This document shows, piece by piece, positions 12,595 through 57,523 of a stretch of 64,000 bases of DNA. The translations under genes and the position numbers were made by a program. The first letter of the stretch is position 1; each line of letters begins with the position of its first letter. The stretch is from NCBI GenBank assembly GCA_000004985.1, contig GG738852.1; one strand, written 5' to 3'. The notes under the pieces are model-generated. The model had not been told where the DNA came from, did no database searches, and saw nothing but the letters and a program-made list of their open reading frames with translations. The DNA is from Naegleria gruberi. Its lineage: Eukaryota.

Positions 12595-13019
12595 TTTTTT
12601 CTTGTTTGATTTGACATGGTCCAAAAGTGGCTAATATGTGAATGGTGCTGAACAGCAAAGATGAACTAGAATTTGATTTGTGATGCCAATGGAACTATCA
12701 GATCAAGTAAAGGTACTTCCTCATATCTTCCTGTAATCCAAAGCCAAAAACATAAAATTATGGATCACAGCCATCATCAAATTGACAATCACTAGAATTT
12801 ATCTTTTTGCACAGTTCATTGTCTGGTAAATTAAATCCAATTTGAAGTTATTAATGTTGAAGAGAATTCTTCCAAGCCAAACATTCCGATTCATCATTGA
12901 AGGGTAAAATAAAAAAGAAGCTTCATTCCATTTTTTTAAATAATTTTCCCGCCCAAAATAAATTTAATCCATCAAAATCTAAATATTGTAACAACTCATA
13001 TTTAATAATATTAAAAAAA

Positions 13020-15065
13020 ATGAGTCTATCAATTTTACCACAAGATTTAATTTACGAAGTGATGAAATTTCTTCGTGTCGATCAACGTATTCGCATCTCG
13101 AGAGTTTGCCAAGAGTTTTATCATATCATAGCGTCTCTTTTTCCCGCACTAGAATTAAATTTGAGTGGCGGGAAAATATTACCAGTAAATTTACCAAGTT
13201 TTCTTTCGTGTCCATTTCTTGAGCAGGTTACAGTGTTGGATCTTTCAGAGAATCTTTTATCAGAGGAGAATATTATTGCAGTTGCCAACTGTGAAAGATT
13301 TAAAAAATTAGAAGAGTTGATTTTGAAAAAGAATGAGTTTAGTTTAAAATGTGCCGAAGCTTTTACTAAATCATCATTTATTAGACAATTGAAATATATT
13401 GATCTTAGAAATGCATTCTTTGTATGGAAAGATGTAGATCATGTTGAAATTGGAAAGAAATTTATTACAAGTCAACCACAAGATTTGCAAAATTTTTGGT
13501 ATCTAGTTTTGGGTAATTGTGGAACAGAAATAGTACCTGAATGGTTATTGGTTGGATGTAAAGAGGGAAATAGTAAATTGCATTGGGAAACTCAATTGGA
13601 GTTTGGTGAATATTTATACCATTCTGAACAAAACACATCACTAGCAATTCAATACTTTGAGGAGTTGGGCAATAATCCACTAGCTCATAATAGAGCTATT
13701 GCCATGTACGTTTTGGGTAAAATTTATTCAACACTAGGTGAAAAGTATCATTCGAAAGCATTCCAGTTATTCTTAAAAGCGGCAAATCTTGATGATCAAC
13801 TATCCTATTTGTCTGTTGCCAACTTTTATTCATTTGGAATTGGTATTGGATCAGATCCAGATGAAGCATTGAAGTGGTATTTGAAATATGCAGAGAATAG
13901 TAATGATGATGATGGAGTTGTTGCACATCAAATTGGTGGTATTTATTTTGAGTACAAAAAAGATATCCCACAAGCTCTGAAATGGTGGAACAAATCTGCG
14001 GAAAAGGACAATACAGAAGCACAATATTCACTCGGTACAATATATATGAATGGGGATGGTGTTGAAAAGGATGTTAAGAAAGGTATGGCACTACTTGAGG
14101 ATTCAGCAAGATTGGGCAATTCTGATGCTCAGAATACAGTCGGTGCAATTTACTTAGAAGGTGAAGATTCAATTGAAATAGATCTCAATAAGGCCAAAGA
14201 CTTTTTAATTGCGGCAGCTGAGGCAGAAGACACAGATGCTCTCTACAATTTAGGGATATTAGCAGAAAATGAAAAACGATTCGAAGAGGCAATGCAATGG
14301 TATAAAAAGGCCTTAGATATGGGAAATACAGCTGCTGCTTATCCACTCGGAAGGTTTTATTTCCAAGGACTGGTAGCTCCAAAAGATGAAAAGAAAGCCA
14401 TTCATTATGTTGAAATCGCCGCCAATAATAATTCTTCAATAGCCCAAGAATATTTGGGTGATATTTACCACACCAAAGAGAGTGAAATTTATAATCCTGT
14501 AAAGGCAATTGAATGGTACACAAAAGCTGCCTCGAATGACTCTACCAATGCCATGTATAATTGTGGATGTATTAATGAGGAGCTTAATAATTTTGAAATG
14601 GCTTTATATTGGTATACAAAGGCGATAGAAAAGGGTAGTTCATCAGCAATGAATAATTTAGCAATGATATACTATGAAAAGAAGAATTATGAGAATGCTA
14701 AGAAATGGATAGAAAAATCAGTGGAGTTTAACAATTCATATGCAATATGCACGATGGGTGAGTGGTATATAGAAGGTTTATGCTATGAAAAGAGTTATGA
14801 AAAGGCTGTTCAACTCTTTACTAGATCAACTCAATTTACAGATGAAAGTGGTGACCAATCGATTTGTCCTCCTGCTTTCCTGCATCTCTATAAATTATAT
14901 GCTAATGGTTTGGGATGTGAGAAGGATTTGGAAAAGGCACAACAATTGCTCGAAACTGCTGCCAAATTAGAAATACAAGAAGCTATTGAAATACTCGAAG
15001 ATCAACAATCCAAAAAGAGAAAATCAACCACTGAATATGATGGCTCATCAAAGAAAATGAAATAA
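13020..15065 (+). CDS. F-box-like / Sel1 (TPR-like) repeat protein
   Basis: The true ATG is probably at 13020 (MSLSILPQDLIYEVMKFLRVDQRIRISRVCQEFYHII gives the F-box-like motif). It is followed by at least 9 Sel1-type repeats (e.g. AQYSLGTIYMNGDGVEKDVKKGMALLEDSARLGNSDAQNTVGAIYLEGE). The C-terminus is basic and Lys-rich. Confidence 0.75.
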   Translation: MSLSILPQDLIYEVMKFLRVDQRIRISRVCQEFYHIIASLFPALELNLSGGKILPVNLPSFLSCPFLEQVTVLDLSENLLSEENIIAVANCERFKKLEELILKKNEFSLKCAEAFTKSSFIRQLKYIDLRNAFFVWKDVDHVEIGKKFITSQPQDLQNFWYLVLGNCGTEIVPEWLLVGCKEGNSKLHWETQLEFGEYLYHSEQNTSLAIQYFEELGNNPLAHNRAIAMYVLGKIYSTLGEKYHSKAFQLFLKAANLDDQLSYLSVANFYSFGIGIGSDPDEALKWYLKYAENSNDDDGVVAHQIGGIYFEYKKDIPQALKWWNKSAEKDNTEAQYSLGTIYMNGDGVEKDVKKGMALLEDSARLGNSDAQNTVGAIYLEGEDSIEIDLNKAKDFLIAAAEAEDTDALYNLGILAENEKRFEEAMQWYKKALDMGNTAAAYPLGRFYFQGLVAPKDEKKAIHYVEIAANNNSSIAQEYLGDIYHTKESEIYNPVKAIEWYTKAASNDSTNAMYNCGCINEELNNFEMALYWYTKAIEKGSSSAMNNLAMIYYEKKNYENAKKWIEKSVEFNNSYAICTMGEWYIEGLCYEKSYEKAVQLFTRSTQFTDESGDQSICPPAFLHLYKLYANGLGCEKDLEKAQQLLETAAKLEIQEAIEILEDQQSKKRKSTTEYDGSSKKMK

Positions 15066-34708: not shown

Positions 34709-35965
34709 ATGAAAAGAAAACTTGAAAAGAAACAAGTGCTTGTGGGAAAGAAGATCAAAATGAAGAGCATTGAATTATTCCCTGATGATATTTGTTATGA
34801 AATATTAAAATATTTAAATTTTCAACAAGTGCTACTGAACGCATGTAAAATTTCAAAGCAATTTTACAGAATTTCCACCACAAGATATGAATTTACAATC
34901 AAATCGGAAGAAACTGCTGATGATTGGTTCAAATACAAAAGTATTTGGACTAAATTTGTTAAATATTGTGAAAAACACCATTGCCCCTATTTGAAGAATG
35001 TTAGAACATTGATAATTATTGACGTGTTGTTGGTTTTAGATGATGATGAATGGGAAATTGTTTGTGCAATGAAGGAATTGAGAGAATTGAGATTGGAAAT
35101 TTTTATTAAAACTTTGGAAAACAAGCAAATTCAAATGTTGGCTAAACATTTAACAAAACTGGAAAAGATTATATTAGGTGGTAATGTTAGTGATGAAAAT
35201 GTTCAACAATTTCAATTATTTCCAAATTTAACAAGTTTGAAAATACCACAGGGTCATATTACTAATTTGAAAAATATAGCCAAATTAGAAAAATTGACTG
35301 AATTGGATATTGGAGAATGTTGTGATATTGTGTTGGACGATGGTCTCAGTCCTCTGGCTTTAATGAAAAATCTGACAAGTTTGTCTCTTTCAAAAATTGT
35401 ATTCGCACCTGAAGAGTACAAGCCCATCACACAATTACCTCGCCTTGTCTCTTTGGATGTGTCCTCTTCAGATAATACTGTTGAATCAATCAAGATATTG
35501 ACAAGCTCACTAAAGCAGTTAACAATATTTAACATTAGCAACAATTTTCTGATTGGGGATGAAGCTGCTCGATTAATTGGAGAATCACTGAAACAATTAA
35601 CATTTTTAAACATCAGCAATACCAATTTACAACCACAAGGAGTTAAATATATTTGTGAATTGACAGAGTTGAGACATCTTGAAATGGGAGAAAATCAGAT
35701 TTTCGATCAGGAGGTGGTTTTCATTTGCAAATCAAAATTTTCATCCAAATTGACAAACTTGGATTTGAAAAATACTAGAATTTCAAAAGAATGTCTCAAA
35801 TCACTATCTACACTCGACAATCTTCAATATCTTAATTTGATGTTTACAGAAATAGACAAATCCAACATTACATTTCCATTCAAGAAATTGAGATTCCTCA
35901 CACTTAAGGAAAATAACCTAGATGGAGATGAATTGGAAGAATTGACCAATTTCAATCAACAATAA
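34709..35965 (+). CDS. F-box-like / leucine-rich repeat protein
   Basis: 418-aa ORF. The N-terminus has an F-box-like motif (LFPDDICYEILKYLNFQQVLLNACKISKQFYRI). Multiple LRRs follow (LTELDIGECCDIVLDDGLSPL..., LTFLNISNTNLQPQGVKYICELTELRHLEMGENQI...). Confidence 0.7.
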   Translation: MKRKLEKKQVLVGKKIKMKSIELFPDDICYEILKYLNFQQVLLNACKISKQFYRISTTRYEFTIKSEETADDWFKYKSIWTKFVKYCEKHHCPYLKNVRTLIIIDVLLVLDDDEWEIVCAMKELRELRLEIFIKTLENKQIQMLAKHLTKLEKIILGGNVSDENVQQFQLFPNLTSLKIPQGHITNLKNIAKLEKLTELDIGECCDIVLDDGLSPLALMKNLTSLSLSKIVFAPEEYKPITQLPRLVSLDVSSSDNTVESIKILTSSLKQLTIFNISNNFLIGDEAARLIGESLKQLTFLNISNTNLQPQGVKYICELTELRHLEMGENQIFDQEVVFICKSKFSSKLTNLDLKNTRISKECLKSLSTLDNLQYLNLMFTEIDKSNITFPFKKLRFLTLKENNLDGDELEELTNFNQQ

Positions 35966-36991: not shown

Positions 36992-38800
36992 TTACTCAAT
37001 TGTACATGGAAGATTATTAATCTCGAAAACTCTCTTCATAATATCAAAGTGATATTGGATATTTGGATGTATATCATGAAAATACAAACCCTTATCAATG
37101 ATCATATGGATAAGGTTTTTGTCTTGTTTTAACCTTTCGCTGGCATATCTTATTGATCTTGGATTGTTCAACACTGCCTTGTATACAATTTCTCTATCAT
37201 CCCTTAATTCTGGATTCAAATACTCAAGCCATTCTCCCTGCTTACTCACCAATTCTAGTGCCAATAATCTTGGAATTCCATGTAAAGATTTTGCAGGAAA
37301 GTAAGTAGCGTCATCGATTGAAATTATCCTCAAAAGCTGGCCACATTTTAACATTTCATCTGAAACAAATACAATACTATATGGATCTATCTTAACAAGT
37401 TCTTTCATGAATTCCATATCGTTCCATAAATTTGGATCTATCATTTGTTGGAGTTTGTCATTGAGGATTAGTAATGGTTTTTTCTTTTTGAATAGTTCCT
37501 TAATAAGTTCTCTGTCCGATCTGTACTTTGCAGGTATTTCTTTGAAATGAATCAAGTATTGAAGAGCTGATTCTCTAGTGTCAACCTTTTCCAGATTTCT
37601 CTTTATAAATCCTTTGTAATTTTCAATGAATTCTTTAATTTCTTCTGCAGGATTGACTACTTGTTTACAGATGCTGTCAGCGAGAGATCCATTTCCAAAC
37701 AAATCTTTCACAATTCTTTTAAAGTACTTATTGGTAAATTGCTTATTTTCCAACAAATCCTTATCCGACATTGATAATGGAGCTTTGAGTCCCAATGAGA
37801 GAATCACATCTGGATCCCTGCTACAATAGCAACTATAAGAAAAACCGGGCTCAATTTTGAGAGCCTTAATCATGAATTCCTTATCCTTTAACAGTTCCTT
37901 TCCAACAAATTGCAAAATATATTGTGGATGATTACCCATGCCTGTTTCTATTAATCCATAATCTTGACCAGATTTAATGGCAGCCATGGCAATCTTTGGA
38001 TCATTCTTGAGATTATCAGTTGCATGTGCAATAGAATATGGATTTGAATTGACAGCTTGCATGACAATTTCTGGATCTGATTTAAAAGTATCGCTTGCAA
38101 ATTTCAAAGCAGCACCATTTAACTTTACAGCCTTTGAGACAATTGACTTGTCATTCTTGAATTTCTCTTCAACAAATTGCAAAGCGAGTGGATTACTTTT
38201 GACAGCCATTAATACTACTGCCTTTTTGTTTCTCAATTTTTCACTAGCAAATTTGATACATTCTCCTTGTTTTCTAATGGCCTTTAACATGAGTTCTTTA
38301 TCATCTTTAATCAAAGGTATCACCTTTGACCAGTCATGATCATGAATATGTGAATTCAAGTCTAATAATTTGTTAATGACATCTCTGTCATGTAGCAATT
38401 CTTCTGGAAGATGATCGAGAACCAATCTGTTCAATTTCATAATCACCTCCTTATCCTTCCTAAATTCCTCTGGCAAATGATCAATTTGAATAAATTCCGA
38501 TTTTGAATCGAGTAATTTCATAATAAAATCTCTATCCTTAGTGGTGGATAACCTTTCTCTGAAATCCAACAATCCAATCCTATACAATTCCCTCAGGCAT
38601 TCAATCTTGTTATTGGTGAATAAATAATTTTCGAGAGTTTTTTCCCTTTTATTACTTGTTGTGTTGAGAAATTGTGATGATGAGAAATTTCTAGTCATTG
38701 TAAATATTGACGATGATGATTTGAGAGTTTGAATGAATCCCGAAGATGGTGATGAACCCTGTAAGGAGAACAATCTAACCTTGTTAACAAGTTGTTTCAT
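36992..38800 (-). CDS. DUF4116-repeat protein
   Basis: 602-aa ORF with at least 8 tandem units of about 35 aa. The units follow the pattern D.E.V..AV..N..AL.YAS..LK.D (e.g. DKSIVSKAVKLNGAALKFASDTFKSDPEIVMQAVNSNPYSIAHATDNLKNDPKIAMAAIKSG; DREIVYKAVLNNPRSIRYASERLKQDKNLI), which is typical of DUF4116. Confidence 0.6.
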   Translation of the reverse strand: MKQLVNKVRLFSLQGSSPSSGFIQTLKSSSSIFTMTRNFSSSQFLNTTSNKREKTLENYLFTNNKIECLRELYRIGLLDFRERLSTTKDRDFIMKLLDSKSEFIQIDHLPEEFRKDKEVIMKLNRLVLDHLPEELLHDRDVINKLLDLNSHIHDHDWSKVIPLIKDDKELMLKAIRKQGECIKFASEKLRNKKAVVLMAVKSNPLALQFVEEKFKNDKSIVSKAVKLNGAALKFASDTFKSDPEIVMQAVNSNPYSIAHATDNLKNDPKIAMAAIKSGQDYGLIETGMGNHPQYILQFVGKELLKDKEFMIKALKIEPGFSYSCYCSRDPDVILSLGLKAPLSMSDKDLLENKQFTNKYFKRIVKDLFGNGSLADSICKQVVNPAEEIKEFIENYKGFIKRNLEKVDTRESALQYLIHFKEIPAKYRSDRELIKELFKKKKPLLILNDKLQQMIDPNLWNDMEFMKELVKIDPYSIVFVSDEMLKCGQLLRIISIDDATYFPAKSLHGIPRLLALELVSKQGEWLEYLNPELRDDREIVYKAVLNNPRSIRYASERLKQDKNLIHMIIDKGLYFHDIHPNIQYHFDIMKRVFEINNLPCTIE

Positions 38801-45649: not shown

Positions 45650-46310
45650 ATGAAACCAAAGGATGAAATTAAGGCTGTTTTTGTTGGTAAGTTAATTTCC
45701 TGATCATGCTCTTGTGGCTAAAGGGAGGTTGATATTAGGTGATACTGTGAGTGGTAAAACATCACTCTTAATTGCATTGATGGGAGGAGTCATTTCCGAT
45801 AGCTATGTTACACCATTATTGGATCCTTTCGATTCTGTGGTTAACAATTTCACCCTTAGAGGCATGGGGGAAGGAAATGGATTACCAAAAGAAAACCTGC
45901 ATGTTAAATATATTGATACGAGAGGATCAGTAGATTATGATCCAATTAGATATCTCATCTATCCAGAGACCAATCTATTTGTTATTTGCTGCAGTCTTGC
46001 CAATGATGAGCCACTAAAAAGTGTTATAACTAGGTGGCTTCCTGTTATTAAAGACAAGTACAAAATGATTCCATTTGCCTCATTCTTGGTTGTTGGTACA
46101 AAGTCTGAAACCACATCCATTCCTAAAGGTTCTTTTATTACATCAGCAAACTCAATGTTCAAGAATGTTCCAGGATATGCAGGTGCAGTAGAAGTTTCAG
46201 CCATGGACCAAACGGGAATTAAAGAACTCCAACAAAAAATTATTGTTGTTGGAGCTGAAAATTTGAGAAAAAAGAATAAGGACTCGGAGGGATGTTGTAC
46301 AATTCAATAA
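45650..46310 (+). CDS. Atypical (Rnd-like) Rho-family small GTPase with farnesyl-type CaaX box; 2 exons
   Basis: Exon 1 (45650-45686) encodes MKPKDEIKAVFV. The 52-nt intron (45687-45738) has a GTAAGT donor and TTAG acceptor. Exon 2 (45739-46310) encodes GGDTVSGKTSLLIAL...YVTPLLDPFDSV...YIDTRGSVDYDPIRYLIYPETNLFVICCS...TRWLPVI...FLVVGTKSE...EVSAMDQT...GCCTIQ*. The alignment to Rho runs through switch I, DTAGQE, the Rho insert region, NKxD and SAK. In the P-loop (GDTVSGKT against Rho GDGACGKT), Thr replaces the Gly12-equivalent. In switch II (DTRGS against DTAGQ), Ser replaces the catalytic Gln. NKxD reads TKSE. The C-terminus CTIQ is a CaaX box with X=Gln. Confidence 0.7.
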
Positions 46311-46360
46311 ATATTCTTTTCATGATCTATTTTCTCAAATTGTGATTCATTTTTGTTTCA

Positions 46361-48739
46361 TCACTCCTCTATCCTATTCATTATGTTTCTGATTCTTTCA
46401 AAGTGATGCTGCTTTCTAAGCTTTAGAATATCAATAGTTTCACCCTTTTCATTCTTGTTATTGTCCTTAATTTCCATATTGAGTAGTTCCCTTTCATTTT
46501 TCAAATAATCTTCAATGGCAGCAATGACCTCTTCATAGCTTAACATTTTTTCATTATGTAATTTTCTCTTTCCAAAGGCGTGAAACGTAAGGAACTGAGC
46601 AAATTTTTTGGTGTCAATCTCTGAAAGCATAAAAGATGTGGCAATTAATGATGACCTGTCATTTGATTTGGTATGGATTGTAAATGGTCTATATTGATTT
46701 TCGATAGGATTATCCAATATATCTTCGCCTGTTCCATTCAATATTTCCATTGAATCTCCATTGGTAGGTAAGGAAGGCTCGACGGTACCTGTTGGTGGTG
46801 CTACTTGGAGAATACTGGAGGTTGTTTCTTCCTTTTTAGAGGATTTGACTTGTTCAAGCATACATTTGACTATCCTTTCAACTTGTTGTTCCTGATCCAA
46901 ACGATTTCCAATAGATTGCCCATGCTTGTAGACATATTGTAATTGCTGTTCTACAGTTTCAATAAATATTCCATCTGGTTCATTTCGAGTTTGGAGAGGC
47001 ATTTCAGTAAATTCGCTAGAAGATCCATGCCAATGAACGATAGGAGTTTCCAGAGATCTGATGTTGATTCCAGAATATTGATTGGAAAAGAACCTTCTTC
47101 GATGATCTTTGGAAGGCTCTGCCCTATCATATTGACTTGTCACAGTTCCATACTTGGAGGAATACTTGTTAATGGCTGTTTCTCTCTCTTTAAAATAGTA
47201 ATACTCATTATTTCCAATAATGGGTGTCTTCAAATAAGAGTTTCCTTTTCCACTGTAGCTTCTTGTTAAAATGCATTGATTTTGTTGGGAGGCATCAACC
47301 TCAATAGCATCCAATGGAATGTCATCATTTACCTCCTCGTAATTGATCTGTGGTCTCCTTCTTCTTGTTTTTGTGGAGGAGGCTTCATCTGTTGAGGAGG
47401 AGGATGAAGAGCGTGTAGATTTCCTCTTCTTGCTTGATTTACCTGTTCCTCTTTCGCTGTTATAATTGCTAATGATTTCAGATCGTTTGAGTTTTTTCAG
47501 TTTAACCTTCTTTGTATCTGCATCTTTGTGTATTGGAATTGTTGGTTGGTTTGAGAGTCTCACTAATCTGAATTTATAGACATAGGCACCGTTCTTTCCA
47601 TTGGGGAGAATTTGGCGTTCTTTCCAATAGTTGGTAACCCAATACAGTCCATCATATCTATATCCGCTTATTGGTGCATACTTTTCCTGCAATTGAAATC
47701 CTCTAACAACTCTTACTGGAGTTTTAGAGGTCATATTGATTGTTAAACTTTTGTTCACACTGTTAAGTGTTTGATCAGATGTTTCTGACCCACCCTGTCC
47801 TGTATAAATCATAATGTCTCCCATATCCTCATCACCATATCCACCCATAGAGGATGCAACAATTGATTCGGCAGCCTCTCCATTGTTACCATTTCCGAAA
47901 ATACCACACTGTGGTGGACGATGGGTCTTTGACTTGGAACATTGAATACGTTTTTCATATGTAGTGAAAACAGGTTCGACATGTCCATAAAGTTTTCCTG
48001 AATCATCTGGACTTTCATTGATATGAGTCCATTTAGTAGCATCTCCAATTGATTTCTTGTCTAGATCTGTAATATAATTTGCTCTCTTGTTTTTTTCGTC
48101 TTCATCAAGATCTGAATAGTTTACATCTTCTTCCTCCTCTTCTTCATCATCTTCCTGTTCTTCCATTGGAGTTGTGACTTGTGACTCTTCACTTGGTTCG
48201 AAAGAGAAGGTTACAGTTTTTGCAATTGGGCTAAAATGTGAATCACTTGTTTGATGAGAATTGGTTGACGAAATTGGAGAGAGGGGAGGAACTACCACTT
48301 CAACAGTTTGAGTACTAGGTTTTGAATCTCGAATAATTAATGGCCTTTCTAATGTAAGTGGTTTTTGAGGTGTCGTAGATTGCTTATTCTTCCTTCTGAC
48401 AGATCTTGTCCTTTTAGGTGGCTCATTAAAAGCCTCCTCAAGTGTTAAAAATTCATCCAGATCGTTCTCATCAGTTGGAATAAACCCTGTTGACGGATTC
48501 TGCTGAGCAGTCATGTTGAAAAGTGTTAAATTCGAAATTCCACTATTCTGAGGGGGAAGATCCTCTTCCGACAAATCACTCAAAGTAGTGGGAGATTCAA
48601 AAGAGTTATTCATTGATTTTCCAATATCCATAAAATGTGACGATGAGTCTTCATCATCGGGAAAGGGTGATTGATCACCTACGTCAATATAAATCGGCTG
48701 ATTTTCCAATTTTTCAAATAATGTTCTTTGTATCCGCAT
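46361..48739 (-). CDS. SRA/YDG-domain (methyl-cytosine-binding type) protein with long acidic/basic low-complexity flanks
   Basis: 792-aa single ORF with ATG at 48739. The central block reads PPQCGIFGNGNNGEAAESIVASSMGGYGDEDMGDIMIYTGQGGSETSDQTLNSVNKSLTINMTSKTPVRVVRGFQLQEKYAPISGYRYDGLYWVTNYWKERQILPNGKNGAYVYKFRLVRL. This fits the SRA-YDG consensus (GI.G......A.SIV.SGGY.DD.D.GD...YTG.GG...Q.L...N.AL......PVRV.RG...Y.YDGLY.V...W), including the YDG motif. An acidic stretch (EEQEDDEEEEEED) and a basic stretch (KKRKSTRSSSSSS...TRRRRP) flank it. Confidence 0.65.
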   Translation of the reverse strand: MRIQRTLFEKLENQPIYIDVGDQSPFPDDEDSSSHFMDIGKSMNNSFESPTTLSDLSEEDLPPQNSGISNLTLFNMTAQQNPSTGFIPTDENDLDEFLTLEEAFNEPPKRTRSVRRKNKQSTTPQKPLTLERPLIIRDSKPSTQTVEVVVPPLSPISSTNSHQTSDSHFSPIAKTVTFSFEPSEESQVTTPMEEQEDDEEEEEEDVNYSDLDEDEKNKRANYITDLDKKSIGDATKWTHINESPDDSGKLYGHVEPVFTTYEKRIQCSKSKTHRPPQCGIFGNGNNGEAAESIVASSMGGYGDEDMGDIMIYTGQGGSETSDQTLNSVNKSLTINMTSKTPVRVVRGFQLQEKYAPISGYRYDGLYWVTNYWKERQILPNGKNGAYVYKFRLVRLSNQPTIPIHKDADTKKVKLKKLKRSEIISNYNSERGTGKSSKKRKSTRSSSSSSTDEASSTKTRRRRPQINYEEVNDDIPLDAIEVDASQQNQCILTRSYSGKGNSYLKTPIIGNNEYYYFKERETAINKYSSKYGTVTSQYDRAEPSKDHRRRFFSNQYSGINIRSLETPIVHWHGSSSEFTEMPLQTRNEPDGIFIETVEQQLQYVYKHGQSIGNRLDQEQQVERIVKCMLEQVKSSKKEETTSSILQVAPPTGTVEPSLPTNGDSMEILNGTGEDILDNPIENQYRPFTIHTKSNDRSSLIATSFMLSEIDTKKFAQFLTFHAFGKRKLHNEKMLSYEEVIAAIEDYLKNERELLNMEIKDNNKNEKGETIDILKLRKQHHFERIRNIMNRIEE

Positions 48740-49004
48740 TTCTATTAATTTAATTTATGTTTTAATTATCTAATGATGGGTTTTACATGAAAATCTTCGC
48801 TACTATGTTGTGTTTCTGCCTTTTCAGAAAAGGAAGAAACGTTCTGTTGGATTCTTTTTATTTTTTTTTAATTAAAAATTTTGAGCAATTGTTGATGGCA
48901 CTATTAATCTTCTTTCCTAGCTTTAAAAGAACATTGTAATTTAACTGCAATTGTATTAATATTATTAAAATTTCCATCACAATATTAATTCTATTTATAA
49001 AAAA

Positions 49005-50453
49005 ATGCCATTGTTTGAATTCCACGATTTGCGTCAATTGCAAAAGGATGATGATGTAAGAACAGAATCCTCTCGAGAGCAAGCCAGTACTGAAGGAACC
49101 TTGAACAAATTCTATAATCCATACATTCAGAAACAAGCATTATTCTTTGATTCATTGGTTTTATTTATTGAAGAACATACAAAATTTGCTAAAAAAGGTC
49201 TCCGAACCCTTCCATCATATTTTGATTCATTGGATGCTAGTAGACCATGGTTTTGCTTTTGGTGTTGCAATGCATTGAGCATGCTCCCTAACTTGGGAAG
49301 TGATAATGTATTGTATCCTTCTCAATTGGATCTAATCAAGAGAGATGATCCAACACTTGTATCGGATTTTAGTAATTTTCTTGGAAATTTCTGTCAAGAC
49401 AAGGAAAAGGGTGGAATTGCAGGAGGTCCAGGACAATTATCACACGTTGCACCTACATTTTCTGGTACTATTGCATTGTGTGCTTTGAAAGCAAACCAAG
49501 GATTGGATTTAATTGACAAGCAAAAAATGTATTCTTTTTTATATAGTTTGAAAGATCCTGTCTCTAAAGGATTTAGAATGCATGTGGATGGTGAAGTTGA
49601 TACAAGAGGATGTTTTTGTGCATTAATTGTTGCTACTGTTTTGAATATTATGGATGATAAATTGACAGAAGGTGTAGCAGAATATATTGTCAATTGTCAA
49701 ACTTATGAAGGAGGTATTGGAGCTTATCCAGGAGTTGAAGCACACGGTGGATACACTTATTGTGGATTGGCAGCTATGATGTTCATGAAGAAAGCTCACC
49801 TTCTCGATTTAGATTCATTAACACACTGGCTTGCCAGAAGACAAATGTCATATGAAGGAGGATTCCAAGGAAGAACAAACAAGCTGGTAGATGCTTGTTA
49901 TTCGTTTTGGGTTGGTGCCTCTTTCCCTCTCTTAGAAGCTGCTTTAGTTTCCCTTAAGGATCCAAAAGACAGAACTGAATTAGATCAACAAATTCTCGAT
50001 TATCTTCAATGGCAACCTCCAACTTTGGACTCGGAAACCAGAATCAAATATACACCAAAGACATTCAGTTTGAAGGACACTTTGAAAAAAATCAAAACCC
50101 ACCACAATTCTGAGGAGTATTGCCAAATTGAGGAAATGGAGGCAACAGAACCATATTTGGATTTGCAAGATTCAGAATGGATGTTCAATCAAACAGCCTT
50201 ACAGGAATATCTTCTCTTGTGTTGCCAACAAGAGTCAGGAGGTCTTCGTGACAAACCAGTCAAACAACCAGACTTTTATCACACTTGTTACGCCTTGTTT
50301 GGTTTATCAATTTCTCAACACAATCCAAGTGGTTCTCTGGCTGTTTTGGGCGATTGCAAAAATCTTCTCAGACAAATCAATCCTCTCTTCCAAATGTGTA
50401 CAGATAGTGTTTCAAATGTTTTGAATTATTATGGAGGTAGAACGAGTGTGTAA
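49005..50453 (+). CDS. Protein prenyltransferase beta subunit (CaaX farnesyltransferase-beta / GGTase-I-beta type)
   Basis: 482-aa single ORF. It contains prenyltransferase alpha-alpha toroid repeats (GGIAGGPGQLSHVAPTFSGTIAL; GGIGAYPGVEAHGGYTYCGLAAM; GGFQGRTNKLVDACYSFWVGASF; GGLRDKPVKQPDFYHTCYALFGLS). The zinc-ligand context D-x-C-Y is present. Whether it is FTase-beta or GGTase-I-beta cannot be decided by eye. Confidence 0.7.
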   Translation: MPLFEFHDLRQLQKDDDVRTESSREQASTEGTLNKFYNPYIQKQALFFDSLVLFIEEHTKFAKKGLRTLPSYFDSLDASRPWFCFWCCNALSMLPNLGSDNVLYPSQLDLIKRDDPTLVSDFSNFLGNFCQDKEKGGIAGGPGQLSHVAPTFSGTIALCALKANQGLDLIDKQKMYSFLYSLKDPVSKGFRMHVDGEVDTRGCFCALIVATVLNIMDDKLTEGVAEYIVNCQTYEGGIGAYPGVEAHGGYTYCGLAAMMFMKKAHLLDLDSLTHWLARRQMSYEGGFQGRTNKLVDACYSFWVGASFPLLEAALVSLKDPKDRTELDQQILDYLQWQPPTLDSETRIKYTPKTFSLKDTLKKIKTHHNSEEYCQIEEMEATEPYLDLQDSEWMFNQTALQEYLLLCCQQESGGLRDKPVKQPDFYHTCYALFGLSISQHNPSGSLAVLGDCKNLLRQINPLFQMCTDSVSNVLNYYGGRTSV

Positions 50454-50575
50454 ACTCAATATGAAAGCAAATCTTATTCCCGCCAAAATTAAATAACAGC
50501 AATAAAATAAATTTAAAAAAAATAGAGCAGTTGTTGTACCAACTATTTTTCTAACATCACAACGATTATTTCTTC

Positions 50576-51343
50576 ATGATGAATAGTAGCTTTAGCACAA
50601 CCAGCAACCCTGCAATGGAAGAGGTTGAAAAAATGTTTCAGGAAGTAATCGAAATTCACGATCGGGTTGCTCAAAAAACAAACCAATTCGAACAAAACTT
50701 TAAAGGTTTCATTAATAGTCAAATTAACGACAATAATAAGAAAAGACACGATTTTGAACAAAATTGTCAAAATTTTCAATCAGAATTTCAATCACTCACT
50801 ACCCGTGTAGAGAGAGGAATTAATGAAAGACAACATGTGGAAGAAATTAGAAAAAGATACTGTGAGGATGAAGGTGAGCTGGATCAAAGAATAACCGATA
50901 TGAAAGTCAGAGCCGACGAACAACCTAAAATTATTGAAGAATCCAAGCAAAAATTGCTACAACTCAAATCAGAACATGAAGAAAAATCCAACATGCTCAA
51001 TAGAGTTGAATCGGATTTTGTTGACCATGCCACAAAGAAATTTATTGAAAAAGAAAAGTATAGAACTCTTCTTGGAATGACATTCGAAGCAAGACAAGAT
51101 GGTGACATTGCTTACCTTTTAATTTCCTTCTCCATTCAAAATATGCAAGCTTTAGGGTTGACCAGTTGTCAAATTGCTTTGAGAATTGATGGAGGACTAT
51201 ATTCTGTAGCAGGATGTCAACCAGCAATTCAATATGATGATTTAATTGCTTCACTCAATGACAATAAGAACTTTGGATCGTTCATTATCTTGGTCAGAAA
51301 TCGTTTCAAGAACCTTATCAACCAACACAAACCAAGAAAATAG
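50576..51343 (+). CDS. SPC25: Kinetochore protein Spc25-like (N-terminal coiled coil plus C-terminal RWD-like domain)
   Basis: 255 aa. The N-terminal 170 aa have heptad character. The C-terminal GMTFEARQDGDIAYLLISFSIQ...YSVAGCQPAIQYDDLIASLNDNKNFGSFIILVRNRFKNL resembles the Spc25 C-terminal domain (..NNFSAFLANVRKAF..). Confidence 0.45.
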   Translation: MMNSSFSTTSNPAMEEVEKMFQEVIEIHDRVAQKTNQFEQNFKGFINSQINDNNKKRHDFEQNCQNFQSEFQSLTTRVERGINERQHVEEIRKRYCEDEGELDQRITDMKVRADEQPKIIEESKQKLLQLKSEHEEKSNMLNRVESDFVDHATKKFIEKEKYRTLLGMTFEARQDGDIAYLLISFSIQNMQALGLTSCQIALRIDGGLYSVAGCQPAIQYDDLIASLNDNKNFGSFIILVRNRFKNLINQHKPRK

Positions 51344-51555
51344 TAGTACCAATTATTTAGTGAAATATCGATAGAAATTTAATGCTCTACAGCTTCATCG
51401 TAATATGTTTGAAAATGATTTTCAAAATCAGAATAATAAATTGACAGCAGAAGCACCTTACTTGAGAAATAATTCTTTTTCAACTTTTACCGCTATGAAT
51501 ATATGCAAGCATAAAAATGTTGTTGTAATCTCGCAAAAAAATATCCCCATCAAAA

Positions 51556-52058
51556 ATGAGAGTTTGGCCTAGTGTATGTTTATTTAGTGTTAGAGGACAA
51601 GTTTTCTAATTATTATTTGCGTGTGATGATGTATTCCTTGTTGTGCGATTACTATTACAACAACAACAAATAATGATACAATTATTGTGGATGATAATTT
51701 GTGTGGATAATAATTTTTATTGTTGGGAATTAAAATAGTTCTTGTTGACCGCAATGTTCGTTGCTGGTGTTGTTCACGGAAAGGACAAGCAAGCTTCCTT
51801 GTACAGACTTGCTAAGGGTAATCAACAAAAGGAAGAAGAATTGGTTGAAAAATACGTTAAGGAAATGATTGAAGAAGATGAAAAGAAGGCTGCCACTGGT
51901 ATGTATCATGATGATAATATTAAATTTATTTACTAATTTTAATAGAAAGAGGTGAAGATGCTTCCTTGTACAATGTCCCACCAGGATTGCGTCAAATGGC
52001 CAAGACCATCAAGCAACAAAGAGCTAAGAATGTTCAACCAGCTGCTGCTCAACAATAA
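51556..52058 (+). CDS. Small secreted Lys/Glu/Gln-rich peptide with an internal repeat; 3 exons including an 18-nt first coding exon
   Basis: Exon 1 (about 51556-51573) is ATG AGA GTT TGG CCT AGT and is immediately followed by GTATGT. An intron of about 165 nt ends at AG 51737-51738. Exon 2 (51739-51898) continues FLLTAMFVAGVVHG|KDKQASLYRLAKGNQQKEEELVEKYVKEMIEEDEKKAAT. A 47-nt GTATGT intron follows. Exon 3 (51946-52058) encodes ERGEDASLYNVPPGLRQMAKTIKQQRAKNVQPAAAQQ*. Exon 1 plus the start of exon 2 give a classical signal peptide (MRVWPSFLLTAMFVAGVVHG). Codon third positions are C-rich. The motif G(K/E)D..ASLY occurs twice. Confidence 0.45.
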
Positions 52059-52258
52059 TTTAATTTTAAAATTGTGGGAAGATGTACATAAATTCCGTTT
52101 TTCATATCTTTGGACTGTTTCAATAAATCGTTATGACAACCCAATAAGAGGGTTTTATAATTCAAAAATACAATTTAATAATAGTATTTTAATGTAATGA
52201 TTGTTTCGAATGGATTAGTTATATTATTGTAAGTAATATGTTGTTGCTACCATAAAGG

Positions 52259-53716
52259 ATGAAGAGAAATGGATTAATGGGATTCTCATGGAATAAATCA
52301 AAAAAAATGTTAGGAAACAATACTAAGAGCATGTTGAAGATATCTAACAAGATGAGAGGAATGAATCATTCCCTTCGCAACACTTCTTGTTTATTTAATC
52401 AACAATTTAAAAGACAATTTTTGGTAAGTACATTTACATCATTGCTGGTCTGACTAGGAGCCGATCATCAATCGGAATGATGATAGACCTCATCAATTAA
52501 TGGTCAACAATGCAGAAATGCAAGCACATCAGATATTGCATCAACATCATTGAAAAAGAAGAAGGACAGCAAGTTTTATTCATTTTGTCAAACACAATTT
52601 CCAAACAAGTTTAAGGTTGGAGAGTGTAATATTGTGGAGGAATTATTTTCTGCAGAAAGTCAAAAGTTGTGTTTCAGTGAAATTTCAAAGAGAAGTGTCG
52701 TTACAGTGGAGGGAGAACATTCTGATTCATTCATTCATTCACTCGTAACAAGTGATGTTTCTAAAAAACTCATTGTTCGAGATGAAACAAAGAAAAATCT
52801 TCCAACACATAGCTCTCAACCTTCCTTGTTCCTTTCTCCAAAGGGAAGAGTTCTCTTTGATGCAATTTTGAGTGTGGAATTTGAAAGTGATGGATCTTTG
52901 AAAAATAATCGTAAAATTTATATTGAACATGAGGCATCTCAAACTGAACATTTGTATAATTATTTAAAGAGTCACGTATTGAGAAAAAAGGTTAAAATTG
53001 AGAAATTTTCAAATAATTTCCAATCTACTACTACTACAACTTCAGAAGGCCCAATTGTTAAAGTTTTTGCCTTGTTTGGAAATAAGATTTTGAAATCTAG
53101 AAAACCTGACTTGCAATACAAGTGGAAAGATTCTGTGGTTTGTGTCAAGGATCCAAGAATTCCAACTCTCGGTTACAGAATTTATGGATTCTTTTCAAAT
53201 CAAGAACAATACGAACAATTTAAACATGATGTGAGTGCAGAACTCTCTAAAAAACTCTTGGTTGACACTGAAAGTGCTGAATATTATGAAAGAATTCGTT
53301 TATTATCTGGAATTGCTGAAAACTCTGTAGATATTCCATCAGATAGTGCATTCCCAATGGAATCAGGATTTGAACAAATTGGTGGTATTCATTTTGGTAA
53401 GGGATGTTATGTTGGACAAGAGCTCACAAATAGAACCTTTCACAGAGGAGAAATCAGAAAGAGAATAGTTATCATTAAGGGAGATAAATTACCAGAAGCT
53501 GGTTCTGATCTCCAATTTACTGGATCAAATACTGAAGAGCTCAGAAGTGATAAGGCTGGTAGAATGTGCTCTCGTGATGAACAAGTTGGCTTGGCCACTG
53601 TTAAATTTGAACCTCTCTTGGAGAAGGACTCCACTTTGGAATTGTCATTTACCAATAGTCAAGATGGAAGTACAAATACTCTCAAAATTGTACCTCCATA
53701 TTGGTTAGCCCTCTAA
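52259..53716 (+). CDS. IBA57: IBA57 / YgfZ-family mitochondrial Fe-S cluster assembly factor (GcvT-like folate-binding fold); 2 exons
   Basis: Exon 1 (52259-52423) encodes a basic presequence-like peptide (MKRNGLMGFSWNKSKKMLGNNTKSMLKISNKMRGMNHSLRNTSCLFNQQFKRQFL) and ends at a GTAAGT donor. An intron of about 135 nt follows. Exon 2 (from about 52559 to 53716) has a GcvT-like N-domain (SVVTVEGEHSDSFIHSLVTSDV...LFLSPKGRVLFDAIL). It also carries the family signature KGCYVGQELTNRTFHRGEIRKRIV, i.e. the K-G-C-Y-x-G-Q-E motif. Confidence 0.75.
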
Positions 53717-53906
53717 CTTATCGATTTTGCGTGCAATACTCGAGAAAATGATTACATTCATCCAATAAATTAACCTTGCTTCTCCTTCTATTCTGATCAT
53801 TATTTGGGAAGGTATATCTCGATAGTGCAAATTGTTGAAACTTCCACTCAAATTCCTCTTCCAATTCTTTATACGGTCTGTTGATATGTCTAAAATAGTA
53901 CATTTT

Positions 53907-54563
53907 TCAAAAATTACAAATAAATATTGAGGCGATAAGGATAATGAAAATTAAAATATCAATAACATACTCGAAATAATAATCATAAAATTCATCACAC
54001 TCTGATGGAAATTTGTACAATGTCAAGTGATATTGCAATACATATTGTTGATACATGATTTTTGTTATCTCCTCATCGGAAGGTGTTTTGGTATTGTCCT
54101 CCAAATTATCTGACTCCTCCACCAGCTCCTCTCTGATCATTTCATTGTTTTGAGGTGTAAGCTGACTGCAACTTGAATCAAAACTTGAGGAAAATCTAGA
54201 ATGAGGACTAGCATTAATTGTGGTAGGAGAACGAGGTTTTACACTCTTGATATACCCATTCTCTACTTCAAAATCATCACTATAAAAATGTCTTTCTATT
54301 TCATATTGTGAGGAATTCCATTCCATATTGTTGAAACTAGTATCAGTAACAATTTTAAAGGTGGGAGACTTGAAATTATCACTGCCAATTATTTCTCCAA
54401 ATAAACCTCCAACCATTCCTCTCGAGTGAGAACTTGATCCACTAGAAAAACAGTTGAATGAATATGTATCATCATACTCAGTTCTTGCAATTCCTAAATC
54501 CGAGAGAGAATCTGCAACTGTGTTTTCTTCCTTGTTGATGTTAGTAGAAAATTCCGAACCCAT
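53907..54563 (-). CDS. Hypothetical protein (about 218 aa) with N-myristoylation-type start and C-terminal hydrophobic tail
   Basis: The probable ATG is at about 54563, giving MGSEFSTNINKEEN, which fits the M-G-x-x-x-S consensus. The ORF-track M upstream is a TTG. The C-terminal IDILIFIILIASIFICNF is a tail-anchor-like helix. No recognisable domain. Confidence 0.4.
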   Translation of the reverse strand: MGSEFSTNINKEENTVADSLSDLGIARTEYDDTYSFNCFSSGSSSHSRGMVGGLFGEIIGSDNFKSPTFKIVTDTSFNNMEWNSSQYEIERHFYSDDFEVENGYIKSVKPRSPTTINASPHSRFSSSFDSSCSQLTPQNNEMIREELVEESDNLEDNTKTPSDEEITKIMYQQYVLQYHLTLYKFPSECDEFYDYYFEYVIDILIFIILIASIFICNF

Positions 54564-54957
54564 TATCCTTTCTGGTATTAATAAATTGGAGCTGCAACAA
54601 TGTTTTACTCCGCGTTTTAATGGCAATCAAAGGATTTGATTAACTGATGACTTCTTGCTTTTTTTTTAAATGGAAAAAAGTATGAAGTTGGCCAAACACT
54701 GATTTGAGAGCAATCCAGATAACTCTTTTTAAATGAAATGTAATTTCAAATAACATTGTAATTTCTCTCTCAACACTGTCTAGGATGTTAGACACAAATG
54801 TCAGTTATGGAGCGAGCATAATAATTGAAAATATTTTACAAAACATTAATATTTATACATAAAGTTTTTAATTTTTTGAATGCCCTGATGGAGGTGGGAT
54901 GGCCCGGGTTTTTAGGAACAGTTTGTTTGGAAACAATGAAAAATCCAATTATATAAA

Positions 54958-56232
54958 TTATTGTGAGATGAATGACTTGTTAATAACCTTAACCTTATCG
55001 ACTGGAACTAATCTGTAAACTGGATTTGGTAATAAAGCTTCAACAATCTTCTTTTCATCAATGAGTTCCTTAACACTGACGTTAATTCTATCAGCAGAGA
55101 AAGAGTTAATTGGCAAACCTTCAATAACACCGTATTGACCAGCACCGAAACATTGCACTGGCATAGAACTCCAAATACCTCTTGGAATACCATATTGACC
55201 TTTGCTTGGAATGGCCATAGAAACCCATTCACTGTTACCCAAAACCCAATCACGCATGTGTTTAACAGCAGCATCAGCGGCAGAAGCAGCAGATGACTTT
55301 CCTCTAGCACCAATAATAGCAGCACCTCTTTGTTGAACCTTTGGAATGAAATCTTCGGTTATCCACTTTTCGTCATTGATCAAGTTCATGGCCCATTGTC
55401 CGTTGACAGTGGTGAATGAAAGATCTGGGTATTGAGTAGCAGAGTGGTTACCCCAAATAGCAAATCGTGAAATATCGGAAACGGTACATCCAAGCTTATT
55501 AGAAATTTGTGCCAAGGCTCTATCATGGTCAAGTCTAGTCAAGGCAGTAATATTTTCTTGTGGAATATCAGGAGCATTGAGAGATGTGATCATGGCATTA
55601 GTGTTGGCTGGGTTAGCAACAATCAAGACCAAAACATCACCATTAGCATTAGAGTTCAAAGCTTCACCTTGCTTCTTGAAGATGGCAGCATTATCCTTCA
55701 TAACATCAGCTCTTTCCATACCTGGACCTCTTGGCTTACCTCCGAGCAAAACAGCATAGTCTGTACCTCTGAAAGCTTCAGATTCACTATCGGTAATGAA
55801 AATTTCTTCAAGGAGTGGGAAAGCACCATCTTCCAATTCCATTTTAACACCTTCCAAAGCCTTCATGGATTGTGGGACGTCCAACAATCTCAATCTGACT
55901 GGTTGATTTTCACCCAACATTTCACCAGTGGCAACTCTGAACAACAAGCTATAGGCAATTTGACCAGCAGCACCTGAAACGGTAACTGTAACTGGAGGAG
56001 CAAGTTGATCGACATCCTTGGTCATGACTCTTGGGCCTTCTCTGGCACTCTTGTTGATCCACTTACCAACAGTCTTGATATCCTTTACATCAACACCAGC
56101 AAAGTCAGCCTTGGTTTGCTTACCGAGCAACATACGTTCAAGAGGTGTCTTGGTGAGGGACATTTCTTGGTCCATTTGAGCACCACGTTGCTTCAAAGTG
56201 CTATAATTACGACCTAAAATGTTGTTTTTCAT
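54958..56232 (-). CDS. Malate dehydrogenase, cytosolic (MDH1/LDH-like NAD) type, with a roughly 70-90-aa N-terminal extension
   Basis: ATG at 56232. The core from VTVTVSGAAGQIAYSLLFRVATGEMLGENQPVRLRLLDVPQ onward matches MDH1 throughout, including the NAD-binding GAAGQIAY, catalytic IWGNHS and substrate Arg residues. Upstream, about 90 in-frame codons with the same C/G-rich third-position bias precede it (MKNNILGRNYSTLKQRGAQM...). Internal Mets are at residues about 20, 34 and 71. Confidence 0.9.
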   Translation of the reverse strand: MKNNILGRNYSTLKQRGAQMDQEMSLTKTPLERMLLGKQTKADFAGVDVKDIKTVGKWINKSAREGPRVMTKDVDQLAPPVTVTVSGAAGQIAYSLLFRVATGEMLGENQPVRLRLLDVPQSMKALEGVKMELEDGAFPLLEEIFITDSESEAFRGTDYAVLLGGKPRGPGMERADVMKDNAAIFKKQGEALNSNANGDVLVLIVANPANTNAMITSLNAPDIPQENITALTRLDHDRALAQISNKLGCTVSDISRFAIWGNHSATQYPDLSFTTVNGQWAMNLINDEKWITEDFIPKVQQRGAAIIGARGKSSAASAADAAVKHMRDWVLGNSEWVSMAIPSKGQYGIPRGIWSSMPVQCFGAGQYGVIEGLPINSFSADRINVSVKELIDEKKIVEALLPNPVYRLVPVDKVKVINKSFISQ

Positions 56233-56470
56233 CAAATAAAATTATATGTGTTCAATATATTCAACATCAAATAATTATCATCATTAATTTTTATAATTTT
56301 TAAAAGTCGGTTCGTTAAAAACATCAATTATTCAATTATTGGTAAAAATTAGAAAGTGTAAATCAAATTAATAATAATAAATAGATATCGTACGTGTTGT
56401 CTTGGACAATTGTTGAGTAAGTCTCTTCATTTGTTTCGATATTTTTTTTAGGAATTTACAATATTTATTT

Positions 56471-56507
56471 TTTGCTGCTGAGTTGACTCTCCCAGCAAAA
56501 AATGCCT
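56471..56507. other. Perfect 10-bp inverted repeat (hairpin potential) in the divergent MDH/ICMT intergenic region
   Basis: ttttttgctg ctgagttgactctcc cagcaaaaaa: the 10-bp arms are exact reverse complements, with a 15-nt loop. Confidence 0.4.
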
Positions 56508-56857
56508 TGTCGCACTTCTTTGCTCAGTTATTAAAATCTTCCTCTGATATGTTGTGAATTGGATTAGAGATGATGATTTAATTACCAAGTTATTTGAAGT
56601 AGTAATAGTGAAAGAATATTTGAGTCTCTAATGACAATTCTTTCATGGAAGGGGATGGAAATTTTTTTTGTTCCGATTCAAAATTTCCTTCATTTTAATC
56701 TTCTCTTATGGATTGATTAATTATCAAAAGTTAAAGTATCACTACAATCACAAGAAGAAGAACTATTTGATGATAAAAGCTTCTGGTGACCCTGATGACA
56801 TGTAAACGGACTGAACTTTGATTTCATTGTTCCTGTTGATTATCAAAAATCAAAAAA

Positions 56858-57523
56858 ATGGATTTAGTCTGGTTTGCATTCCTTCTCTTCGTTGTGATTA
56901 TTATTGTTTTCCATGGAGGAGAATGGTTGACACAATATTTATACAATAGAGAATTATGTTCAATTGAGTGTAGGTTTTGTGAGGAAGTTTTGATTATTTA
57001 ATATGATGATGACTTTATATTCCGATTATTGGAAAAAGCTCTTGCTATTCAACAACATTACGTGATTGCTATGGGATGTGCTGTTTTGGAGTTCTTTATT
57101 GAGGCCTTCTTCTTTCCATCCTTGAAGGAACATCCAATTATCTGTTATTTGGGATTGATTCTTGTTATTATCGGAGAGGTCATCAGAAAGGTTGGCATGG
57201 TTACAGCCAAGAAGGCCTTCACTCACTACATTCAAGAGAATAGAAGACCTGGTCACAATTTGATCAAGCACGGAATTTATGCTTACATTCGTCATCCAGG
57301 TTATTTGGGTTGGTTTATTTGGGCTCCAGCAACTCAATTGGTTCTCATGAATCCTATTTGTACTGTCTTGTTCTTGTATGTGGCTTGGTACTTCTTTTAT
57401 GATAGAATTCCATATGAAGAGGAAACACTTATTGATTTGTTTGGAAAGGAATATGAAGATTATAGAAGAGCAGTTCCATCCTATATTCCATTCATTGATG
57501 GCATCGTTTTAAAGAAGCATTAA
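56858..57523 (+). CDS. ICMT: Protein-S-isoprenylcysteine O-methyltransferase (ICMT / Ste14); 2 exons
   Basis: Exon 1 (56858-56978) encodes MDLVWFAFLLFVVIIIVFHGGEWLTQYLYNRELCSIECRF. The 60-nt intron (56979-57038) has a GTGAGG donor and AG acceptor. Exon 2 (57039-57523) encodes SLAIQQHYVIAMGCAVLEFFIEAFFFPSLK...LIKHGIYAYIRHPGYLGWFIWAPATQLVLMNPI...FFYDRIPYEEETLIDLFGKEYEDYRRAVPSYIPF. This carries the ICMT signature R-H-P-x-Y...E-E motifs and matches the C-terminal two-thirds of Ste14. Donor choice is by phase compatibility only. Confidence 0.7.

Follow-up and report, generated by a model that had tools for sequence, protein, structure and literature searches.

A catalytically degenerate Rho-family gene of Naegleria gruberi and its neighbourhood with the genes for farnesyltransferase beta and isoprenylcysteine methyltransferase

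The window analysed here is a stretch of 64,000 nucleotides from contig GG738852.1 of Naegleria gruberi (assembly GCA_000004985.1). It carries, on the plus strand and within 11.9 kb, a two-exon gene for a 202-aa Rho-family GTPase (hereafter the Rho gene and the Rho protein), the gene for the beta subunit of protein farnesyltransferase (FTase-beta) and the gene for protein-S-isoprenylcysteine O-methyltransferase (ICMT), the last two both lying downstream of the first (Table 1). A preliminary description of the locus had placed the three genes where we find them, and had read the first as an unusual, Rnd-like and constitutively GTP-bound member of its family that might be functionally linked with the two enzymes. 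Its coordinates and gene content proved right, the start codon, intron and stop of the Rho gene having been checked; its interpretation fared less well. The Rho protein is probably a fast-evolving, lineage-restricted paralogue, predicted to be GTPase-dead and prenylated, which stands next to the enzyme genes by chance.

The product of exon 2 is 98–99% identical to XP_002680709.1, annotated as "rho family small GTPase, partial [Naegleria gruberi]" on a contig of 938,756 bp. Three 5′ models compete across 45650–45740. In the NCBI partial model the intron is read through (LILGD...); the model that Herman et al. 2021 corrected by hand starts from an ATG at 45663 and begins MKLRLLILGD... (PMC8296547); and the model used here starts from the ATG at 45650. 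A plausible β1 strand results from both spliced models (IKAVFVGD or LRLLILGD). The model from ATG 45650 is probably the better one, because its start context (aaaaaaATG) recurs at FTase-beta and ICMT and at the majority of the window's clear gene starts, and because its donor is the consensus GTAAGT; its intron is also the sole splice choice that yields IKAVFVGDTVSGKT, aligned with IKCVVVGDGAVGKT in Rac and Cdc42. The choice is immaterial to the substitutions described below, since from Asp14 onwards the P-loop is encoded by exon 2 and does not differ between the three models. The exon-2 substitutions, which might have disappeared under a different intron model for exons 1 and 2, thus persist in every one of them.

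Judged by sequence and by modelled fold, the Rho protein is a Rho-family G domain, because all 60 listed PDB sequence matches are Rac, Cdc42, RhoG or TC10 (50–56 bits), the top Foldseek matches of its AlphaFold2 model are all Cdc42, TC10, Rac or RhoA, the Rho-type switch II/α2 signature (DYDRLRPLSYP) is present as DYDPIRYLIYP, and the conserved Trp97 of the family is present as Trp112. This tryptophan is invariant in alignment A2, which holds the Rho protein together with its 78 nearest single-domain relatives (79 sequences, positions in Rac1 numbering). The AlphaFold2 model was built on that 79-sequence alignment and has a mean pLDDT of 88, a pTM of 0.86 and the canonical order of strands and helices. 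Identity is 25–31% to Rho/Rac/Cdc42 as against 19–20% to H-Ras.

The nucleotide-binding motifs were compared in A2 and in a second alignment, A1, in which the Rho protein stands with human Rac1, RhoA, Cdc42, Rnd3 and H-Ras and eight database Rho-likes. A threonine at the Gly12 position, a serine at the Gln61 position and an NKxD box degenerated to TKSE, all pointed out in the preliminary description, are seen in A1. Thr15 (45744–45746) occupies the Gly12 position, in a column that across the 78 relatives is Gly in 43 and Thr in 4; Ser76 stands for Gln61 (Gln in 46 of the 78); and Asp118, which is Asp in 75 and Glu in 2 relatives, is replaced by Glu. As read from the alignments, the protein is more degenerate than that description had it. 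In switch I, the canonical YVPTVFD is changed at positions 34–35 from PT to TP, so that Pro38 stands at the invariant Thr35 position, a column with Thr in 64 of the 78 relatives and with Pro outside the eight commonest residues listed. Ile replaces Phe at position 28, Arg replaces Ala at position 59 and Val replaces Glu at position 62, the usual residues being found in 55, 53 and 53 of the 78, respectively. The Rho insert helix is absent from the region between G4 and G5, where about 10 residues are missing in A1 and where the AlphaFold2 model is helix-free between β5 (127–133) and α4 (144–153), and about 12 residues are inserted in the β2–β3 hairpin. GKT, Asp57, Gly60 and the SAM of G5 are kept in A1; G1 (GxxxxGKT), G3 (DxxG) and G5 (SAx) are present, and G2 (Thr to Pro) and G4 (TKSE, not TKxD) are altered.

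According to alignment and model, all residues needed for GTP hydrolysis assisted by a GTPase-activating protein (GAP) are lost, namely by Gly12→Thr, Gln61→Ser and Ala59→Arg. Constitutive GTP binding is less secure than the loss of catalysis, because with Thr35, Phe28 and Asp118 gone, nucleotides might be bound more weakly or the conformational switch might no longer exist, as in a pseudoGTPase.

The likeness to Rnd1–3/RhoE extends over several features. Both have a residue other than Gly at position 12 and a Ser at position 61 (GDSQCGKT and DTSGS in Rnd3, GDTVSGKT and DTRGS in the Rho protein), both carry a farnesyl-type CaaX box, and in both the predicted loss of GTPase activity implies control outside the cycle of guanine nucleotide exchange factor (GEF) and GAP. 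Rnd and RhoH owe their GTPase deficiency to the absence of the Gly12 equivalent and to an altered switch II, and their control is through expression and degradation (PMC13236570); Rnd3 carries a farnesyl group and is bound to GTP constitutively (PMC3690454). In the alignment and tree of Rho, Rac, Cdc42 and Rnd sequences, the replacement of Gly12 and Gln61 that underlay the term "Rnd-like" stands, and a grouping with Rnd is not found: identity is 26–27% to Rnd3 as against 28–31% to Rac1 and Cdc42, and in a simple neighbour-joining tree Rnd3 pairs with RhoA, the Rho protein being placed on a long branch among other divergent Rho-likes. On this sequence evidence the likeness to Rnd is convergent and not one of kinship. 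Nor does the constitutively GTP-bound state of Rnd carry over readily, since the switch-I Thr, the NKxD Asp and the Rho insert helix are all preserved in Rnd, which has N- and C-terminal extensions besides, whereas the Rho protein has none of these four.

Three other comparisons are instructive. RhoH resembles the Rho protein in that Gly12 and Gln61 are both replaced and that its activity is believed to depend on how much of it is expressed and degraded, but it retains the switch-I Thr and is not orthologous; its C-terminus is CKIF. Rho1 of Entamoeba histolytica (EhRho1, PDB 3REF), which appears among the structural neighbours of the AlphaFold2 model at ranks 25 and 38, is an accepted protist Rho without the signature insert helix. 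In this it resembles the Rho protein, but its catalytic residues are canonical, and it binds and hydrolyses GTP. The pseudoGTPases, as classified by Stiegler and Boggon (cited in PMC13236570), likewise have a G-domain fold minus catalytic and some nucleotide-contact residues. In the Rho protein, however, the Lys and Thr of the P-loop and the DxxG are intact, so that a complete loss of binding is not implied.

The tail of the protein ends in CTIQ, a CaaX box whose last residue makes it farnesyl-type, as had been proposed: X=Gln is a farnesyltransferase determinant in mammals, and the farnesyltransferase of Trypanosoma brucei takes Met and Gln in preference to Ser, Thr, Ala and Cys (PMC3206815). 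T. brucei is the nearest lineage in which this rule has been characterised. The extra cysteine of CCTIQ together with the RKKNK stretch suggests a second membrane signal. A protein of this kind would be unable to act as a normal GEF/GAP-cycled switch; it would either be locked in one nucleotide state, like Rnd and RhoH, or be a poor binder and serve as a pseudoGTPase scaffold. Farnesylation is predicted at Cys199 of CTIQ; the protein would then probably be trimmed and methylated and possibly palmitoylated at Cys198, which would give it a seat on the membrane, and its activity would be set by expression and turnover. The gene is presumably still functional, because its exon-2 frame is open over about 198 codons in DNA of 33% GC (chance ~2e-7 by our own estimate) and because the CaaX box and the polybasic tail are retained.

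In an exhaustive HMMER scan of 1.84 billion cluster representatives, the best relatives, self excepted, reached at most about 37% identity and about 70 bits per domain, and the next-best matches were ordinary Rho proteins from scattered taxa (insects, yeasts, mites and unidentified protists). A word-indexed homologue search with the Rho protein returned nothing beyond the protein itself. One candidate orthologue (P0127, without the insert, with TNIFIICC and ending in CHIM) was rejected: it is 30% identical, has canonical Gly12 and Gln61, and comes from an unidentified metagenome contig that has no neighbours in common with the Rho gene. Two seemingly close relatives (P0122 and P0123) owe their scores of about 1e-30 solely to three or four tandem Rho domains.

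The Ras superfamily of N. gruberi numbers more than 350 genes, among them more than 80 Rho and 80 Ras genes, and its paralogues have expanded extensively after the split from N. fowleri; birth-and-death evolution has been noted for divergent Rab-like clades, and the family contains annotated pseudogenes (Herman et al. 2021, PMC8296547 Supplementary Material 4). In Table S8 of the same study XP_002680709.1 is catalogued as "Rac", carries no pseudogene flag and is given a one-to-one N. fowleri orthologue, Rac33 (NfowleriV212_g705.t1) (PMC8296547). Tails and motifs were counted in the 27 "Rac" sequences that are printed there with complete C-termini. The CaaX box ends in Gln in 11, in Met in 6, in Leu in 8 and in Cys in 2, which makes it farnesyl-type (Gln or Met) in 17 of the 27, and at least 10 have a non-canonical Gly12 and/or Gln61 position or a degenerate P-loop. 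Examples of degenerate paralogues are XP_002678988.1 (GDASVGKT, DTAGT, CTLQ), XP_002679920.1 (GDCECGKT, CLIM) and XP_002678060.1 (GDQAVGKT, DTAIH, CMLQ). Given these proportions the Rho gene is no singular find: as far as these sequences tell, a catalytically degenerate Rho with a farnesyl-type tail is a common type in N. gruberi, and this one was already catalogued. The unusualness ascribed to it earlier rested on features shared with many sister entries, which combine a degenerate P-loop or switch II with CaaQ or CaaM tails. It differs from others in the expansion in lacking an F-box, BTB or Kelch extension, and it is distinct in pairing Thr35→Pro with Asp118→Glu, both rare among the 78 related Rho-likes.

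The two enzyme genes had been correctly identified. The earlier assignment of a CaaX prenyltransferase beta subunit can be narrowed to FTase-beta: the best matches of the uninterrupted frame are all FNTB, the protein is 78% identical to N. fowleri FTase-beta, and it is annotated as XP_002680710.1, "farnesyltransferase beta subunit". Its motifs RPWFCFW, VDACYSFW and DFYHTCY align with RPWLCYW, VDGCYSFW and DFYHTCY of rat FTase-beta, which in rat numbering contain W102, W106, D297, C299, Y361, H362 and Y365, and with them the zinc ligands and isoprenoid-ruler residues. The annotated protein (467 aa) splices out 15 in-frame codons (SDNVLYPSQLDLIKR, 49299–49343), and residues homologous to these are kept in the FTase-beta of N. 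fowleri and Willaertia; for that reason the 482-aa frame is probably correct as it stands and the annotated 45-nt intron false. In Naegleria and Willaertia FTase-beta some 60 residues that the rat protein lacks are inserted (49977–50168); they follow the zinc-ligand motif VDACYSFW and precede the conserved EWMF segment. ICMT, too, is what it had been taken for: besides its Pfam assignment, its matches are named protein-S-isoprenylcysteine O-methyltransferase, and its 198-aa product is 69–71% identical to the ICMT of N. lovaniensis (198 aa) and Willaertia (199 aa) and 49–51% identical to plant ICMTs.

The arrangement of these genes was compared with that in related genomes. The N. fowleri FTase-beta lies on a 10-kb contig (NODE_856) that has, in this order, genes for a Vps4-like AAA protein, FTase-beta, Spc25, a 666-aa protein, a Ras-like protein and PARG; this contig carries neither ICMT nor a copy of the Rho gene, and ICMT is on NODE_117 of the same assembly. 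Willaertia magna has FTase-beta on one contig and ICMT on another, and the 20-kb neighbourhood of each is without the other enzyme or the Rho gene. FTase-beta was not found within 10 kb on either side of the N. lovaniensis ICMT, and a copy of the Rho gene near FTase-beta or ICMT was not found in the loci of any of these three species. The only shared arrangement is the adjacency of FTase-beta and Spc25 (49005–51343 in the window, L001:1484–4140 in N. fowleri), and synteny ends right after Spc25. Because the linkage is not conserved in the relatives, and because five unrelated genes lie between, the Rho gene, FTase-beta and ICMT most likely came to lie together by chance, in N. gruberi alone, and do not form a functional cluster; the functional link suggested earlier for the three genes does not survive the comparison with N. 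fowleri, N. lovaniensis and Willaertia.

We give a probability of about 0.7 to the reading that combines these results, that of a fast-evolving, lineage-restricted Rho paralogue with a dead GTPase, a prenylated tail and chance neighbours. Several points weigh against it. Rap GTPases, which are without Gln61, still cycle, the GAP supplying an Asn, so that the loss of Gln61 alone is no proof of a dead enzyme; the nucleotide state, GTPase rate and lipid type of the Rho protein are all predicted; and if Rac33 shares the substitutions, the gene would be older and more constrained than "fast-evolving" implies. As to the neighbours, the N. fowleri FTase-beta contig spans just 1.5 kb upstream, linkage further upstream being excluded from the ICMT side alone, and the nominal chance for the specific pair FTase-beta plus ICMT within 8 kb is about 4e-4. 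This figure, which like the following ones is a rough estimate of ours for a genome of 41 Mb, is small as long as no correction is made for the number of gene pairs and pathways that a scan inspects. Over some 36 prenylation gene pairs the chance rises to about 1.4%, and if all pathways are considered, dozens of same-pathway neighbour pairs are expected in the roughly 640 such windows of the genome. Given the more than 160 Rho and Ras genes, one of them would lie within 3.5 kb of FTase-beta with a probability of about 2–3%.

The same motif losses could mean relaxed constraint in a decaying, functionless paralogue, expressed or silent, that is a pseudogene in the making. Five classical nucleotide-contact or catalytic positions are changed, a close orthologue was not found among the 1.84 billion representatives, and the birth-and-death evolution of the family with its annotated pseudogenes (PMC8296547) provides the setting for such a decay. 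We nevertheless regard it as unlikely, for the frame is intact with canonical splice sites and a start context like that of the bona fide genes of the window, GKT, DxxG and SAx persist along with the hydrophobic core, the polybasic tail and the CaaX box, the G-domain model is confident, and Herman et al. gave no pseudogene flag and list an N. fowleri orthologue (PMC8296547). No better are the prospects of a working switch that would cycle through non-canonical machinery, a dedicated GAP supplying the missing catalytic residue as RapGAP does for Rap. The precedent of Rap itself, the intact phosphate and Mg ligands (GKT and Asp57) and Gly60 in A1, and the many GTPase regulators that Naegleria encodes would allow it; a threonine at the Gly12 position, on the other hand, is expected to clash with any inserted catalytic finger, and with the γ-phosphate-sensing threonine of switch I gone, the GTP/GDP-dependent change of conformation is doubtful. 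Highly improbable, in our judgement, is a functional neighbourhood in which a farnesyltransferase substrate is kept beside its modifying enzymes for co-expression. The common strand and short span of the three genes and the farnesyl-type CaaX box of the Rho protein invite this idea, as do the Ras-superfamily genes that N. fowleri and Willaertia, too, have no more than 10 kb from FTase-beta. But the FTase-beta/ICMT linkage is absent in N. fowleri, N. lovaniensis and Willaertia, the five intervening genes lie on both strands, the GTPases that N. fowleri and Willaertia have beside FTase-beta are of the Ras type, share about 20% identity with the Rho protein and stand in other positions and orientations, and with more than 160 Rho and Ras genes in N. 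gruberi, and farnesyl-type tails in 17 of 27 printed Rac sequences, the chance of such a neighbour is the 2–3% given above.

These Ras-type neighbours deserve a closer look, since in all three heterolobosean genomes examined (N. gruberi, N. fowleri and Willaertia) Ras-superfamily genes lie within 10 kb of FTase-beta. The Ras-like genes of N. fowleri and Willaertia magna are 0.3–4.5 kb away from it, and two of them are without the catalytic Gln (DTAGEPE and DTSGLNEY) and have farnesyl-type tails (CQIA and CVVM). They were rejected as orthologues, being 37–39% identical to each other and about 20% to the Rho protein. At the ICMT loci no Ras-superfamily gene was found, and in Balamuthia the GTPase near FTase-beta is Rab5-like and without a CaaX box. 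Coincidence in GTPase-rich genomes is the most likely explanation. It is very improbable that Heterolobosea recurrently place FTase-beta beside GTPase genes with a farnesyl-type CaaX box and a replaced catalytic Gln; if they did, it would be a sign of selection that keeps FTase-beta co-located or co-expressed with "locked" substrates while the identity of the neighbouring GTPase turns over.

The gain from the Rho gene is small, one more annotated example in an already reported, very large and fast-evolving Naegleria Rho family. A real cluster would have been a rare case of eukaryotic pathway clustering, against which the synteny test speaks. Of practical use are the probably better 5′ exon for XP_002680709.1 and the probable false intron in the annotated FTase-beta gene, the N. 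fowleri orthologue of which serves as a drug target (PMC7560193).

Table 1. Coordinates of the Rho gene and its motifs, of the enzyme and intervening genes of the window, and of Ras-like genes near FTase-beta in two relatives.
Feature	Position	Strand	Remarks
Rho gene	45650–46310	+	two exons, 202 aa
Rho gene exon 1	45650–45686	+	37 nt; encodes MKPKDEIKAVFV plus first base of Gly13 codon
P-loop GDTVSGKT	45686–45761	+	only first base of Gly13 codon in exon 1; (G)DTVSGKT part of exon 2 is 45739–45761
Rho gene intron	45687–45738	+	52 nt; GTAAGT donor, TATTAG acceptor
Rho gene exon 2	45739–46310	+	TAA stop included; all G motifs and CaaX tail
Switch I YVTPLLD	45804–45824	+	canonical YVPTVFD
G3/switch II DTRGS	45915–45929	+	Ala59→Arg, Gln61→Ser (A1, A2)
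G4 motif TKSE	46098–46109	+	Asp118→Glu
G4–G5 region	46110–46196	+	Rho insert helix absent (A1)
G5 motif SAM	46197–46205	+	
C-terminal membrane-targeting tail	46266–46307	+	polybasic RKKNK, extra Cys, CaaX box CTIQ
CCTIQ	46293–46307	+	C-terminal residues of Rho protein
SAD/SRA-domain gene	46361–48739	-	between Rho gene and FTase-beta; Pfam PF02182, 116 bits
FTase-beta	49005–50453	+	single 482-aa ORF; Pfam PF00432 Prenyltrans, 335 bits
Spc25	50576–51343	+	between FTase-beta and ICMT; Pfam scan
CAF17/IBA57-like	52550–53716	+	between FTase-beta and ICMT; Pfam scan
Unknown ORF	53907–54626	-	between FTase-beta and ICMT
Malate dehydrogenase	54958–56235	-	between FTase-beta and ICMT; Pfam scan
ICMT	56858–57523	+	two exons
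ICMT exon 1	56858–56969	+	
ICMT intron	56970–57038	+	69 nt
ICMT exon 2 with stop	57039–57523	+	Pfam PF04140, 103 bits
N. fowleri Ras-like gene	L001:7100–7876		DTAGEPE, CQIA
Willaertia magna Ras-like genes	L002:8159–8865 and L002:9052–9675		nearest to FTase-beta: DTSGLNEY, CVVM

Of the gaps between the Rho gene, FTase-beta and ICMT, in which the five unrelated genes lie, the one before FTase-beta measures 2,694 bp and the one between the two enzyme genes 6,404 bp; the Rho gene and ICMT are 10,547 bp apart. The SAD/SRA (YDG) protein encoded in the first of these gaps has 792 aa with long low-complexity flanks, and its gene has a 265-bp divergent intergenic region in common with FTase-beta. Further prenylation or Ras-superfamily genes were sought across the whole 64-kb window and none was found. 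F-box genes with LRR, Sel1 or TPR repeats occur at 526–2953, 12897–15065 and 34709–35965. A DUF4116 repeat gene lies at 36992–38800 and has homologues near the N. lovaniensis ICMT as well (L003:15144–20685), a recurrence that probably reflects expanded families and not synteny.

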